Source: a virus
Lineage: Duplodnaviria > Heunggongvirae > Uroviricota > Caudoviricetes
Virus record (IMG/VR): IMGVR_UViG_2630968911_000004
Location: 1-10,949 of that record
DNA: 10,949 nucleotides
Reading direction: 5' to 3' (one strand)
Shown here: positions 2,207 through 5,656 of the stretch, one piece after another
How positions within the stretch are numbered: position 1 is the stretch's first letter
Layout: each line of letters starts with the position of its first letter
Notes under the pieces: model-generated
Seen by the model: only the letters and a program-made list of their open reading frames with translations
The model's database searches: none
Told to the model about the DNA's origin: nothing
Translations under genes and position numbers: made by a program

Positions 2207-3031
2207 TCAGGCGGTGAAAGTACCAATAAAGGTTTCTACTTTGCTGTCTTTGAATTTCTCAACAAGCAGATCACGAAATTCGTTAGCCATATCTTCCTGC
2301 ACCGCTTCCAGCTGAATAATGCGCAGAACCAGTACAGGACGATCGCCAGTGATAATGCTGAGGCGTAATTTAAACGGACGTTCTTTCAGACCTTCAAACG
2401 GAACGCATTTAAATTCAAATGCCACTGGCATAATGTCTTTGGTCTTCGCTTCGACAGATTCCATCAGGGAGCGTTTGCCGCTGAAGTCATTATCTTCAAA
2501 ATCAGCGGTCTGGTTTGCTTCAATCGTGATTTTACGGATTGCCGCAGCCGCTTTTGTTGCCTGAATGGCGTCACCATTAGCATCAAAGCCCACAAGGTAG
2601 TCGGCCCAGTCTTCAATCCATTCTGCCAGTGATTTCTGGGAGTTACGCTCGCCGTTAACAGACAACAGGGCAGAGAACGGTGCTGTCTTTTTCAGTTTGA
2701 GAGTGGCGGTGTTATCTGCGTGACCTGGTTCATCAATAGTACCCAGGTTAAGCACACTGACGGCACGCATATTATCAGCATCGATAAAGCAGCGGGTGCC
2801 TTCATCTGCAAGATCTTTAGAATAACGGGTAAAGTCATCGATGCTGGCAGTGGAAAGCGCACCACGGAAACGGAAGCGATTTAAATTAAATTTTTCCAGA
2901 TCATGAATGCGGAAATTCTCAGGCAATGCCACAGCATCGGCACCAATCTTACTGATAATTTCATTAACACCCTGAGCAGAAATAAGGGCATGGATTTGAT
3001 TAATTGCGGTTGCGTCTAAGTTCTGAGACAT
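2207..3031 (-). CDS. yfdQ: uncharacterized prophage protein, 274 aa (YfdQ-like)
   Basis: Clean 274 aa ORF with ATG at 3029-3031 and GAGGA SD 7 nt upstream. Length and position (between yfdP and yfdR) match K-12 KplE1 YfdQ as recalled. Confidence 0.8.
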
Positions 3032-3096
3032 AATAAGTCCTCACTATATTAAGATATTCAGTGATGAGATAAATAATCAGTTAATTAAGAACGATA

Positions 3097-3459
3097 TTAA
3101 TGACCTGCTGCGCGGAGTTTTCCGTCAGGCTCACCGGCAAGAGTCAGTAATTGTCCCTGGTCTTCCTGCAGAATAGTCAGGCGACCACCGCGATTGACAT
3201 ACATCGGCGTTTCGGTGGTGTCTTCTTCGGAAATTTTCCCACGGTTAGTCGGGCGAACATATGAGAGTTTGTGTTTGATTTTCACACGGTTCTCATCAAA
3301 TGGTTCGATTTCCAGGTTGAGTGAGACCTTACCTTTGGTTTTCGTGTTCATCACACCGGAAGCGACTTCACTGAGAACTGCGCCGATTTTGGTTTCAAAT
3401 ACGCCGCCGTCCAGCTCCCCGATAAATGCCTGCACATCAGTACTGCGTTCGCTAGCCAT
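3097..3459 (-). CDS. yfdP: uncharacterized prophage protein, 120 aa (YfdP-like)
   Basis: Internal ATG at 3457-3459 preceded by GAGGAG SD; product MASERSTDVQAFIGELDGG... is 120 aa. The track ORF's upstream extension to 3777 is Arg-rich, lacks an RBS and is rejected. Confidence 0.75.
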   Translation of the reverse strand: MASERSTDVQAFIGELDGGVFETKIGAVLSEVASGVMNTKTKGKVSLNLEIEPFDENRVKIKHKLSYVRPTNRGKISEEDTTETPMYVNRGGRLTILQEDQGQLLTLAGEPDGKLRAAGH

Positions 3460-3479
3460 TTTGCTGCTCCTCATCATAT

Positions 3480-3896
3480 CGACCCTGCAAGGCCGATTAG
3501 TTTCTCCACAAAACAGAGAAGAACACCTGCGGTGGCAGCCGCCCGGATGGATTGGGTTATGAGCCCGTCGTCCGGTGATGCTCTTCTCTGTTTTGTAAAA
3601 AGGACGGTACCAGCCGGAAGCAAGGGTACAAACTGGTACCGCCAGGACTACACACAGCATAAAGTTGTGGTGCCGGGTGCCTCCCGGTGCCTGGCGAAGG
3701 TTGCACACCAGACGGGTGGGTATCCACAGAAGGTCGACTGTCAGCCTCAACCTTAACCCGCGTGCGCTGAGCCGCATTCACCACAACGCCAAGGATTCTC
3801 TTTGGTTGAAAATACTTAGCTGTTATGTGCCTGTCTTTTCACCACTTCAGGCTCGGTGGTATCCTTTTAAGCCCGTATACATAAAAGGAAAATCAA
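3480..3896. other. GC-rich non-coding island with nested inverted repeats; candidate structured RNA or cis-acting site
   Basis: No protein-like frame on either strand. 15 bp perfect inverted repeat 3508-3522 / 3582-3596 encloses a 59 nt GC-rich segment with internal GCGG/CCGC and CCGGA/TCCGG pairings; 8 bp stem GGTACCAG / CTGGTACC at 3606-3613 / 3633-3640; tandem CCGGGTGCCT / CCCGGTGCCT. Confidence 0.3.
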
Positions 3897-4142
3897 ATGA
3901 CTTTTGATGAAAAAGAACTTGATAATGCAATTAATAAAATCATCGTAACGTCGCTCTTTTCCTGTCTCAGCGACACTCAGCAGAAACAGTTCTACGAATC
4001 GGCTTTCAACATGATCGAGAGTTGTTGTTTCTGCGATGCCGACGAGTTACCTGAAATAATCAGGAAACAGTTGGCTGATGCTCTTCGAGTGCGACTTTCT
4101 GACCAATTTTCTGAAATGTGCTCTCCGAATTTGGACAAATAG
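3897..4142 (+). CDS. hypothetical small acidic Cys-containing protein, 81 aa
   Basis: ATG 3897 preceded by AAGGAA SD at 6 nt; plausible helical C-terminus. Its 3' end overlaps the convergent minus-strand ORF 4060..4335 by 83 nt, so one of the two may be mis-called. Confidence 0.5.
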   Translation: MTFDEKELDNAINKIIVTSLFSCLSDTQQKQFYESAFNMIESCCFCDADELPEIIRKQLADALRVRLSDQFSEMCSPNLDK

Positions 4143-4335
4143 AAAAAGGCCATTTCCATTCAGGGTCTGATGGAAATACTTCAGCCTGTTCCAAAGCACG
4201 GCGTAAAGAGAATACAACTCCAGCCATAGCCTGATGTTTCCCATTGGTCCAGCTATCGCCGCTCTGATCTACAGGAGCGGCTATGTCGTATGACCAAACG
4301 ACTTCACCACTATTGTTTAAAATCTGGACTTTCAT
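4060..4335 (-). CDS. hypothetical protein, 91 aa
   Basis: ATG 4333-4335 with GGAGG upstream (spacing about 12 nt) and 8 nt downstream of the ClpX-ZBD-like gene, so operonic. N-terminal 60 aa look protein-like; the C-terminal 28 aa are antisense to ORF 3897..4142. Confidence 0.5.
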   Translation of the reverse strand: MKVQILNNSGEVVWSYDIAAPVDQSGDSWTNGKHQAMAGVVFSLRRALEQAEVFPSDPEWKWPFSICPNSESTFQKIGQKVALEEHQPTVS

Positions 4336-4343
4336 TTTGTTCT

Positions 4344-4547
4344 TTAACCTCCAGATTTCCGCGCATCTAAAGGTGCATTCTCATTTGGTGTGAACTGAAT
4401 AGTTGTGCTGATATTGATTAATGCTCCGACACACAAGACTACGCACTCAGAGCAGATAGCAACTTCATCTTTTCCGCCTTTGGCGATGATTTTTTTTGCC
4501 TGCAGCTCGTTTGCGCCACAAAACGAGCATGTGAAATAACGGTTCAT
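4344..4547 (-). CDS. stand-alone ClpX-type zinc-binding-domain (zf-C4_ClpX-like) protein, 67 aa
   Basis: FTCSFCGANELQAKKIIAKGGKDEVAICSECVVLC aligns with the ClpX N-terminal zinc-binding domain as recalled ([32 protein letters not shown]), including all four Cys. Start set at the second ATG (4545-4547), which has a weak GAGAG SD; the first ATG (4565) has none. Confidence 0.65.
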   Translation of the reverse strand: MNRYFTCSFCGANELQAKKIIAKGGKDEVAICSECVVLCVGALINISTTIQFTPNENAPLDARKSGG

Positions 4548-4649
4548 TTGCGCTCTCTTACACATAGTATTTAACGAATCATCCGGTCATTCATACGCCA
4601 CCGGCGGCTACTTCGTGGGCGTCCTGCCTGTTCGTTATCTTTGACATAA

Positions 4650-4678
4650 AATCTAACTTAACTTAGTTATTATGGCAA
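4650..4678 (-). promoter_or_regulatory. candidate leftward early promoter (PL-like) with an overlapping CTTAGTT operator-like repeat
   Basis: Minus strand: -35 TTGCCA (plus 4673-4678), 17 nt spacer, -10 TAGATT (plus 4650-4655). The spacer contains one copy of the CTTAGTT heptamer that recurs in the OR region. No experimental support; sigma-70 fit is moderate. Confidence 0.3.
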
Positions 4679-4731: not shown

Positions 4732-5358
4732 TTAGAGTTCGTATTGAACTCCTTTGACTACACCAATGATAAGGCAATTACCATTGATAGGGATGTTGGG
4801 ATACCGAGGATTTAATGGCACTAAAAACTTTTGAGGGCCATCGATGACTAATTTTTTTACTGTAGCTTCGTTTGTTCCATCAAGTCGAGCGATGACTATT
4901 TTTCCATGACGAGGTTCTGCATCTGGATCTACAATCACTGTTGCGCCTTCTGGTATTGTTGGGAGGCCATTAGGGTTAGTCATGGAGTCACCTTTAACCT
5001 CTAATGCAAATGAGTTATCACCAATCTTTAATGATGTATCTACCCACTTGTCCACTTCACTAAACACTTCTGCTGCCCTGCACTCAGTAAACTGCCCAGC
5101 CTGAACCCACGATATTACAGGAACTCTGCGCATGTTTGTGACGAGTTTGCCTTCAAACTCAGCACCATAAAGAATGTAATCTATTGACGTATTGAAGAAC
5201 TTCGCTAATTTCGAAAGTGCCTCCCCACCAGGGGTATTGATGTCTTTCTCCCAGTACCCCACAGCAACGTCGCTTACTCCACAAAATTTACCCAATTCTT
5301 TCTGGGACGTTCTGGTAACTCTTCTCAGAGCTTTTATACGCTGACCAACCGTTTCCAT
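4732..5358 (-). CDS. CI-like prophage repressor, 208 aa (N-terminal HTH, C-terminal S24/LexA-type autopeptidase)
   Basis: N-terminal HTH_XRE-like segment (QKELGKFCGVSDVAVGYWEKD) and C-terminal GDSM catalytic-Ser motif with a downstream Lys. Divergent from the Cro-like gene. Confidence 0.9.
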   Translation of the reverse strand: METVGQRIKALRRVTRTSQKELGKFCGVSDVAVGYWEKDINTPGGEALSKLAKFFNTSIDYILYGAEFEGKLVTNMRRVPVISWVQAGQFTECRAAEVFSEVDKWVDTSLKIGDNSFALEVKGDSMTNPNGLPTIPEGATVIVDPDAEPRHGKIVIARLDGTNEATVKKLVIDGPQKFLVPLNPRYPNIPINGNCLIIGVVKGVQYEL

Positions 5359-5455
5359 AGGAGCACCATTTCTTGAATTGCTAAGTAATCTTAGTTTTTA
5401 TTGACCAAAGATAGATTTGTAATTAGCATCTAATAAAACTTAGTTTGGAGGGCGT
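5359..5455. promoter_or_regulatory. divergent OR-like regulatory region between repressor and cro-like gene, with a PR candidate and a palindromic operator candidate
   Basis: Plus strand: -35 TTGACC (5401-5406), 17 nt spacer, -10 TAGCAT (5424-5429), GGAGG SD at about 5447-5451 before ATG 5456. Palindrome CTAAG-TAAT-CTTAG at 5381-5394; further CTTAGTT at 5438-5444. Confidence 0.5.
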
Positions 5456-5656
5456 ATGACAACTGACGATATCGAAAGCTACTTCGGCAGTATTGAGAAA
5501 GTTGCTGCTTTTTTCGGCATAACAACTGAAGCCGTTTATCAGTGGCGAAACCGTCCGGGCCAGTTAATTCCAAAAGGACGTGCAGCAGAAGCTGCATATA
5601 GAACTTGCGGACGGTTGCCATTTAAACCTGAGCTTTATGAAAAATCTAATGGATAA
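5456..5656 (+). CDS. Cro-like HTH regulator, 66 aa (YdaS/Cro family-like)
   Basis: Small basic protein immediately downstream of the PR candidate, divergent from the repressor. Central segment (SIEKVAAFFGITTEAVYQWRNRPGQLIP) resembles the YdaS/Cro-type HTH. Confidence 0.8.
   Translation: MTTDDIESYFGSIEKVAAFFGITTEAVYQWRNRPGQLIPKGRAAEAAYRTCGRLPFKPELYEKSNG

Follow-up and report, generated by a model that had tools for sequence, protein, structure and literature searches.

What is the roughly 400-nucleotide (nt) island at positions 3480–3896 of a 10,949-nt stretch of viral DNA (IMG/VR record IMGVR_UViG_2630968911_000004; this whole stretch is the window below), which an initial annotation picked out as GC-rich, highly structured and free of any protein-like frame? 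The window is 100% identical to Escherichia coli strain G4/9 and is a CPS-53/KplE1-like prophage that adjoins dsdC/torI. The island is a real feature, and it is indeed richer in G+C than its surroundings (0.54–0.59 over 3400–3800 versus 0.36–0.50 in the flanks), although its limits shift: the actual unit is a mosaic cassette that runs from about 3860 to 3470, and 3862–3896 differs between the window and prophage e14 of E. coli K-12. We read this unit as a conserved cassette of non-coding RNA, carried on the minus strand within the early-left (PL-type) transcript of the prophage, and we give this reading a probability of roughly 0.6. The cassette combines two known kinds of prophage small RNA (sRNA) with an undescribed hairpin element. 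Its RNA strand, which the initial annotation did not name, is the minus strand, the same strand as a cI-like repressor gene and yfdP. From its structured core onwards, in the direction of transcription, its parts are as follows.

3662–3789, minus strand: STnc100/PasD-type structured core, with a match to Rfam family RF02076, an exact 21-mer and covarying helices.
3787–3779 with 3672–3664, minus strand: helix P1 of the core.
3778–3776, minus strand: junction J of the core, AAU.
3775–3760, minus strand: hairpin P2 of the core, loop UCAGC.
3754–3748 with 3703–3697, minus strand: pseudoknot of the core, AAGGUUG with CAACCUU, the latter in the loop of P4.
3713–3689, minus strand: hairpin P4 of the core.
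3687–3673, minus strand: hairpin P5 of the core, CCGGG-AGGCA-CCCGG.
3642–3663, minus strand: single-stranded linker and putative seed, UUUAUGCUGUGUGUAGUCCUG, conserved in SfV-like phages, ST64B, phiES15 and phiNP.
3597–3643, minus strand: intrinsic terminator with stem GGCGGUACCAG/CUGGUACCGUC, a 19-nt loop, CCUUUUU and a U-tract at 3601–3597.
3503–3601, minus strand: three-way-junction RNA with a basal stem of about 25 base pairs (bp) that includes the terminator U-tract, an invariant inner arm and a variable apex.
3507–3500, minus strand: conserved GGAGAAAC, the first bases of which pair with the U-tract (columns 2–5 with 124–127).
3495–3480, minus strand: small hairpin CGGCC-UUGCAG-GGUCG with a conserved GCA-containing loop, which recurs with different stems.

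The core belongs to a known family. Whereas the initial annotation recognised no known RNA family here, an Infernal scan matches STnc100 (RF02076) end to end (3809–3594, minus strand; 38.7 bits, E = 5 × 10−7, full model 1–206), together with a weak DicF-like module at the 3′ side. Among relatives, the same model scores 40.6 bits in phiES15, 35.1 in ST64B, 34.1 in the K-12 prophage Qin and 29.2 in e14. The exact 21-mer of the family, ACCGGGAGGCACCCGGCACCA, stands at 3688–3668 and occurs once in the window, where about zero chance matches are expected; the other STnc100 hallmarks, UGGUGAAU, the P2 hairpin and the CACCGGGAGGCACCCGGCACCA that closes P1, are present as well. In an alignment of 59 sequences (58 representatives with mutual identities below 90%, among them the window, plus the Qin copy), P1, P2 and P5 are 98% paired, compared with 42–52% when their partners are slid, and they contain 73 doubly changed cells; none of 500 shuffles reached the covariation score. 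The window illustrates this directly, because its P2 (GCGGC-UCAGC-GC-A-CGC) is a fully compensated form of the canonical CCCCC-UGUGC-GG-A-GGG. P1 corresponds to a third inverted repeat that the initial annotation overlooked (3664–3672/3779–3787, 9 bp) and that closes the multi-helix domain. The tandem decamer that it did report is real at 3673–3682/3683–3692, but it is the P5 hairpin with a repeated GGCACC around it rather than a functional tandem repeat.

The family also has a pseudoknot, in which 5–11 nt just 3′ of P2 pair with the loop of P4 through 41 different types of duplex. The window pairs AAGGUUG with CAACCUU and phiES15 pairs AAGGCUG with CAGCCUU; other members use CCAGUC/GACUGG, CCAGAC/GUCUGG, CUGGUG/CACCGG or AGACUGACAAA/UUUGUCAGUCU. 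In a best-duplex search with a permutation control, as distinct from a curated structural alignment, the mean complementarity of the two segments was 6.06, versus 4.29 with the loops permuted, and none of 2,000 permutations reached the observed value. Helix P4 covaries along with the pseudoknot. The STnc100/PasD family thereby gains a higher-order structure that can be tested, consisting of the covarying pseudoknot and a 21-nt invariant arm. Neither the pseudoknot nor the promoter of canonical members described below is mentioned in the preprint that relates PasD to STnc100 (bioRxiv 10.64898/2026.05.13.724894). As a separate observation, P5 (3673–3687) holds, family-wide, a perfect Shine–Dalgarno-like GGAGG, and in about 40% of canonical members the 3′ strand of P1 reads CACCAUG, with the AUG 11 nt after the GGAGG.

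The core is followed by a linker in which UGCUGUGUG and AGUC are invariant in SfV-like phages, ST64B, phiES15 and phiNP, and across phages of E. coli, Salmonella, Cronobacter and Citrobacter, with position 3650 varying between U and A. The terminator stems next to it are entirely different between phages and fully compensatory, with the U-tract kept. In other phages the same slot holds different linkers, such as the AGCCACUGCUUUGGCGG of Stx2 phages, and the terminator that follows is of the same kind. The window terminator has a G+C-rich stem of 9–11 bp (3643–3603; 9 perfect) that is present in the minimum-free-energy (MFE) fold; the initial annotation saw it as an 8-bp stem at 3606–3613/3633–3640, which is present but is actually 9 perfect bp (3605–3613/3633–3641). 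Its arm GGCGGUACCAGUUUGUAC resembles the GGCGGUAUCAGUUUUAC of DicF, and the Rfam DicF model (RF00039) returns 15.7 bits (E = 0.17) over a 91-nt stretch of the window and 28.5 bits (E = 1 × 10−3) for the e14 copy. The junction between P1 and the linker, AAC/UUUAUG, resembles the 5′ cut site of DicF, CAA/UUUUCUG; by this analogy, a DicF-like cut by ribonuclease (RNase) E would be expected near 3664/3663.

The third part starts within the terminator U-tract. On the minus strand, the fold of 3490–3604 has an energy of −51.2 kcal/mol (z = −6.5), a stability that none of 200 shuffles matched, and the 25 consecutive pairs of its basal stem are present in both the MFE and the centroid fold; the plus strand gives −47 kcal/mol (z = −4.1). 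The 15-bp perfect inverted repeat reported at 3508–3522/3582–3596 is present, as the outer part of a longer one at 3508–3532/3572–3596 (25 nt, 84% paired). A comparison of 17 diverse copies gives 38 pairs with 96.4% pairing, against 38–53% when slid, and 8 of them show compensatory change (for example, C–G in 9 copies versus G–C in 8), with 0 of 500 shuffles reaching the covariation score. Because U–G and G–U pairs are frequent, and these would be mismatched on the other strand, the minus strand is the RNA strand. Together with the covariation and with reading frames that are not conserved in relatives, these RNA-type pairs bear out the proposal of a structured non-coding RNA.

Within the hairpin, the inner arm is nearly invariant, with the form CCGGr-CGAC-GGG(CUCAUAA)CCC-AAUCCA-yCCGG (CCGGA...UCCGG in the window), and the apical hairpin, GCGG...CCGC, varies freely. 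No Rfam family matches the three-way junction, which we define here as a new element: its inner motif is found on at least 120 viral contigs and once in the window (about zero chance matches expected), and a terminator U-tract lies just upstream of the hairpin in 116 of 123 copies. GGAGAA follows it in nearly all relatives, and the first gene downstream varies (yfdP here, xisE in e14, others elsewhere). A continuous 25-bp helix is a standard substrate of RNase III, and the stem offers more than the roughly 20 bp of near-continuous double-stranded RNA that define such a site, conserved with compensatory changes. The long hairpin is thus probably an RNase III site on read-through transcripts and a candidate 5′ untranslated region (UTR) element. 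The initial suggestion of processing signals is, for this hairpin, a reasonable reading.

A second argument for cleavage comes from the Qin prophage. Between dicF and dicB lies an STnc100-like core (2947–3087 of our stretch L130, NC_000913.3 ~1649446–1649586; 34.1 bits, E = 1 × 10−5) that is unannotated, ends 25 nt before the dicB start and stands without the rest of the cassette. It has a 12-bp P1 (2952–2963 with 3074–3085 of L130; ~1649451–1649462) and a compensatory P5, CCUGG/CCAGG. DicF derives from a polycistronic, early-left-type Qin transcript, its 5′ end being made by RNase III as well as RNase E and its 3′ end by termination. A 72-nt form of DicF is reported to have a 3′ end made by RNase III, a length quoted in the introduction of the paper concerned (PMC5069750). 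Counted from the dicF start, this form ends at about L130 position 2954, inside the 12-bp P1 of the Qin core. In Qin, RNase III thus appears to cut read-through transcripts in the structure that comes right after the DicF terminator. In the window, the long hairpin fills this post-terminator position, and by analogy we read it as a putative RNase III site.

The surrounding genes place the cassette in an operon. The relevant features of the window are these.

5456–5656, plus strand: cro, from the gene list of the window.
4732–5358, minus strand: cI/LexA-like repressor gene, upstream of the island.
4650–4678, minus strand: candidate early-left promoter, TTGCCA-17 nt-TAGATT, downstream of the cI-like repressor gene.
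4344–4565, minus strand: ClpX-type zinc-finger open reading frame (ORF), between the repressor and the island.
4060–4335, minus strand: ORF of 91 amino acids (aa), the last one before the island.
3097–3459, minus strand: yfdP, as called by the Prokaryotic Genome Annotation Pipeline (PGAP), directly after the island and followed by yfdQ and yfdR.
3472–3467 and 3459–3457, minus strand: ribosome-binding site (RBS) GAGGAG and ATG of yfdP, at the downstream edge of the non-coding island.

Since the island lies between the repressor side and yfdP and on the same strand, it is inside the early-left operon. The site at 4650–4678 is the only promoter-like minus-strand site that a promoter scan found between 5700 and 3000, and is presumed to be the source of the transcript that carries the cassette.

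Consistent with this arrangement, we propose that transcription from the promoter beside the cI-like repressor gene would pass two small ORFs and then the pseudoknotted STnc100/PasD-family domain of about 125 nt. The transcript would continue through the single-stranded stretch and end at the intrinsic terminator, with its 3′ end at about 3597–3601. A nuclease cut just after the structured domain (at about 3663), as for DicF in Qin, would release a DicF-like, Hfq-type sRNA of about 65 nt whose predicted seed is UAUGCUGUGUGUAGUC and which may regulate targets in trans. The terminator would also gate entry to the yfdP–yfdQ–yfdR accessory operon. When polymerase reads through, the next 100 nt of RNA would fold as the three-way junction, with its 25-bp stem including the U-tract; a cut of this stem by RNase III would probably separate the sRNA from the yfdP messenger RNA and give the latter a defined 5′ end.

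How does the cassette compare with what is known? It shares with STnc100/PasD the end-to-end model match, the 21-mer, P1, the GAAU junction, P2 (loop UNNGC), P5, a 3′ terminator and an origin in lambdoid prophages of enterobacteria. It differs in its sub-gathering score, its compensated P2 (GCGGC/GC-CGC versus CCCCC/GG-GGG), another P3 region and another linker and seed; no promoter of its own was found, and it lies early-left, after a repressor gene, not between Q and holin or NanS. Like DicF, it occupies an early-left-type operon position ahead of delayed-early genes, has an STnc100-type core adjacent, passes from a single-stranded 5′ part into a terminator whose 5′ arm starts GGCGGUAnCAGUUU, and is followed by a long helix. 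Unlike DicF, it gives a weak match to the DicF model, has another seed and places the core before the sRNA, where Qin has the sRNA before the core. STnc100/PasD and DicF, which have been studied separately, appear here as interchangeable modules of one early-left cassette. The RNase III hairpins of the lambda N leader, of sib and of the T7 R sites likewise place a double-stranded stem, 20 bp or more in length, between the cistrons of an early phage transcript; the element of the window is instead a three-way junction, and its invariant inner arm has no counterpart in these simple sites.

The family extends well beyond this locus. The 21-mer is found on at least 120 IMG/VR contigs. Among species-representative genomes it stands in at least 120 stretches, and those listed come almost entirely from Enterobacteriaceae and Erwiniaceae; core plus terminator (3594–3809) are present in 2,077 of 5,426 complete E. 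coli genomes. Canonical members lie between a Q antiterminator gene (PF06530 or PF03589) and a holin or NanS-type esterase gene, and many of them have a promoter, TTGACN-17 nt-TAAATT, that ends 7–10 nt before P1. Because of this promoter and this place between Q and holin, the canonical units look like leader transcripts of the late promoter. Late promoter and first terminator lie at this place, and as short late-leader transcripts the canonical units would be comparable to lambda 6S RNA or StxS. Like these leaders, canonical members have a promoter, then a structured RNA and then a terminator in the interval from Q to the lysis genes, whereas the window copy is not at a late promoter; we know of no resemblance to lambda 6S or StxS. 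The pseudoknot and the 21-nt arm, together with the canonical position between Q and the lysis genes, suggest that the domain does more than carry a seed. Canonical loci can be seen at L131 ~3465–3640 and L132 ~3501–3634 and at many IMG/VR loci (among others L014, L027, L041 and L079), and several of them share GGAATG in the promoter spacer. Two members, PasD1 and PasD2, are northern-validated, Hfq-dependent sRNAs of enteropathogenic E. coli (PMC8550237), and have been grouped with STnc100 (bioRxiv 10.64898/2026.05.13.724894). STnc100 itself has been detected by PCR with reverse transcription; among its copies is one that stands 75 nt downstream of stx2B.

The window falls into a subfamily that starts GUUGUGGUGAAUGCGG and includes ST64B, 118970_sal3, phiES15, several viral contigs, Qin and e14. 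Its members follow a repressor gene, on the same strand, in every annotated case (SfV, ST64B, phiES15, 118970_sal3, phiNP, Qin and e14). In the window, 3470–3900 is 99.8% identical to phage SfV, where it lies between orf33 and orf32.

Several points weigh against reading the cassette as a processed, terminated sRNA followed by an RNase III site. Both family matches fall short of the respective gathering scores (38.7 bits versus 47 for STnc100; 15.7 bits versus 48 for DicF). Core and terminator are unexceptional in folding energy, with z = −1.4 on both strands, and the support for the core comes from covariation, not from energy. No target is predicted for the seed: in RNAduplex its pairing with the ftsZ leader was no better than that of shuffles, and the same was true of authentic DicF, so the method is uninformative. 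Cleavage by RNase III is argued from stem length and analogy alone, and the invariant inner arm is left unexplained. The Qin core has no terminator after it and stands in the 5′ UTR of dicB, so that in Qin it cannot belong to a terminated sRNA. Finally, the invariance of 21 nt over many genera exceeds the needs of a simple scaffold that stabilises a 5′ end; it suggests a specific partner that this reading leaves unnamed.

The alternative that survives best starts from this last point. The pseudoknotted core might mainly be a cis element whose target is RNA polymerase during transcription, as with HK022 put, or might otherwise set the efficiency of the terminator, the sRNA being a by-product; it would control how immediate-early transcription passes into delayed-early genes here, and how transcription from the late promoter passes into the lysis genes in canonical copies. 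We consider this unlikely. Its appeal is largely one of position: the core lies upstream of the boundary terminator in every early-left phage copy examined, Qin excepted, in the canonical copies with listed downstream sequence, and in the two Klebsiella phages that have it in the Q–holin interval; Pfam confirms Q upstream and holin downstream in the sampled loci. Over many enterobacterial genera the 21-mer is invariant while linkers and terminators vary freely, as would suit a conserved partner in the host, for instance RNA polymerase. The upstream genes include none for an N-like arginine-rich protein; in phage WGPS2, about 680 nt without an annotated ORF run from the cI gene to the yfdP homologue, with a divergent core inside; and Qin keeps the core without a terminator, as a 5′ UTR. 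The put elements of HK022 and HK639 are also structured early-left RNAs of lambdoid phages, ahead of terminators and with no N-like gene found upstream, but put is about 70 nt long and consists of two stem-loops right after PL, whereas the window core is a multi-helix pseudoknot of about 125 nt some 900 nt from the promoter, and a comparison by eye, without alignment, showed no evident likeness to HK022 putL and putR or to HK639 putL. Moreover, the rightward operon of the window has no second copy, no conserved alternative pairing between core and terminator was found, and the canonical copies lie beside Q genes from two unrelated Pfam families, where Q already explains read-through. Family members have also been detected as stable, Hfq-bound sRNAs.

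In its general form, to which we attach the same low likelihood, this alternative would make the core a widespread compact domain with a conserved partner, most plausibly the elongation complex, at the terminators that separate temporal classes (PR′–tR′ and PL–tL). If true, it would be a second class of RNA element for phage temporal transcription, unrelated to put, and about 40% of complete E. coli genomes, K-12 among them, would carry it. A riboswitch-type antiterminator was considered separately and rejected: a 7-bp pairing of CGCCAGG (P4) with CCUGGCG (terminator) is available in the window and, as read from the sequences, is absent from ST64B and phiES15.

Could a protein antiterminator instead use the long hairpin and the small hairpin after it as a nut-like site (boxA plus boxB)? 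A run that resembles boxA does occur in the 3′ arm of the stem, as UGCUCUU in most relatives and as UGUUCUU in the window; about 25 nt downstream comes a small hairpin whose GCA-containing loop is conserved; and the site lies ahead of delayed-early genes. We regard this as improbable, and clearly more so than a cis-acting core, given that the boxA-like run is locked in the 25-bp helix, that the loop of the small hairpin varies in length from 5 to 9 nt, and that the site comes after the first terminator, not before it. No N-like protein was found in the early-left operon, and no second site in the rightward operon.

The reading that follows PGAP, in which a protein-coding gene of the ymfH family has decayed in the island, is very unlikely. 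ORFs do cross the island mechanically (a 226-aa extension of yfdP and ORFs of 49–80 aa), contrary to the initial statement that no protein-like frame exists; that statement holds in the sense that no common frame is left once relatives are compared. PGAP calls a frameshifted hypothetical protein at 3474–3784 on the minus strand, and the homologous DNA of e14 contains an open frame. This e14 copy covers the whole cassette (window 3860–3470) at 92% identity and is annotated as the coding sequence (CDS) ymfH, which is located as follows.

5070–5381 of our stretch L239 (NC_000913.3 1201069–1201380), minus strand: ymfH, an open 103-codon frame in e14.

A protein-level hit across a frameshift, which the initial annotation had named as an argument against a structured RNA, thus formally exists (the PGAP pseudogene and the ymfH CDS), but the evidence points to an annotation artefact. 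As its ATG, ymfH has the AUG that lies within GGUGAAUGCGG, a conserved stretch of the core, and the ORF runs across the terminator and the 25-bp hairpin. Cores vary in length between 108 and 144 nt, with no 3-nt periodicity; length differences are not multiples of three, and in several relatives, phiES15 among them, stop codons interrupt each of the six frames. At the level of RNA, the substitutions compensate one another. Window ORFs do match PHROG families, phrog_33599 for the minus strand and phrog_3651 for the plus strand, and matches on both strands are to be expected of families that were built from ORFs called on conserved non-coding DNA; Pfam has no match for any ORF that crosses the island. 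On these sequence grounds, ymfH is probably not a protein gene. The cassette reading would thus reassign DNA that is now annotated as protein, including K-12 ymfH and many 'frameshifted hypothetical protein' calls by PGAP.

Least credible of all is a DNA-level site, whether a replication origin or recombination site, as the initial annotation had also suggested, an attachment site or an operator cruciform: long perfect inverted repeats do stand in a GC-rich island, but there are no iterons or multi-copy direct repeats, the many conserved minus-strand G–U pairs would become A–C mismatches both on the other strand and in a DNA cruciform, pseudoknot and terminator U-tract are features of RNA, and in the homologous operons of SfV and K-12 e14 int/xis lie at the operon end downstream, not at the island. 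Frame analysis and covariation with G–U pairs on one strand are the reasons for which we reject the decayed gene and the DNA site.

The K-12 copies make what we propose for the RNA cassette testable in a standard laboratory strain. The e14 copy has a damaged P5 (CCGGG-GGCACCCGA) and damaged inner-arm motifs, and K-12 CPS-53 has lost the cassette. A literature search returned nothing relevant on ymfH as an RNA, nor on sRNAs of ST64B. The 81-aa and 91-aa ORFs of the window are not homologous to YmfI and YmfJ of e14; because the flanking genes of the two prophages are thus non-homologous, the RNA cassette is the conserved mobile unit.

The upstream end of the cassette is marked by a further module.

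3820–3860, minus strand: 5′ boundary module, consisting of the hairpin ACCACCGAGCCUGAAGUGGU (3860–3841) and then the conserved GAAAAGACAGGCACAUAAC, conserved in relatives.

This module is identical in K-12 e14 and is kept in phiES15, in 118970_sal3 and in Qin, where it follows ydfC. The hairpin and its U-run give a terminator-like score on the plus strand. As a separate observation, several Klebsiella phages have the hairpin and GAAAAGACAGGCACAUAAC at about 95% identity, although they otherwise share nothing with the island. A weak promoter candidate overlaps the module (AAGACA at 3837–3832, 17 nt, TATTTT at 3814–3809; 8 of 12 matches), so that a promoter at 3837–3809 is possible though unproven. 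The promoter scan found no promoter-like minus-strand site near the core, and the upstream sequences of the subfamily have no common −35/−10 elements. A sigma-54 promoter at CAGGCACAUAAC was considered and rejected, the GG/GC spacing being off by one and the motif, as judged by eye, not being conserved in 118970_sal3.

On the downstream side, identity to K-12 yfdP starts about 25 nt upstream of the ATG at 3459. The 226-aa ORF (3097–3777, minus strand) is an in-frame upstream extension of yfdP over the hairpin and the core, with the real start at ATG 3459, and an AUGAUG stands in frame 18 nt upstream of that ATG. On the other side of the island, a plus-strand ORF of 81 aa (3897–4142) is preceded by a good RBS and matches phrog_3311 of PHROG over its full length; PGAP leaves it unannotated. 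It overlaps the 91-aa ORF (4060–4335, minus strand) convergently by 83 nt, and e14 has an analogous, non-homologous convergent pair, ymfI/ymfJ. A tblastn search with the 81-aa ORF gave only near-identical copies, in 4 phage records.

Further variants were seen among the relatives. Cores occur in two or three tandem copies, about 220–950 nt apart, in L266 and L267 (Superficieibacter) and in L014, L043, L017 and L029. The Stx2a phage WGPS2 (L133 2000–2685) has a leader of about 680 nt, free of ORFs, between PL and the yfdP homologue, and its divergent core, GUUGUGGUGAAUGCG...ACCACAAC, is below Rfam detection. T-loop-like hairpins stand upstream of the core in WGPS2 (CUGGUUCAAUUCCAG, GUCCGUUCGAUUCGGUC) and in 118970_sal3 (CUGGUUCGAUUCCAG, GUCCGUUCAAUUCGGAC; L006 ~3100–3170); ARAGORN identified no tRNA among them, and no tRNA or transfer-messenger RNA in the window and five related loci. 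In phage ST64B (L003 407–595), C4 antisense RNA (79.7 bits) and IsrK (64.3 bits) lie adjacent to each other on the other side of the immunity region.

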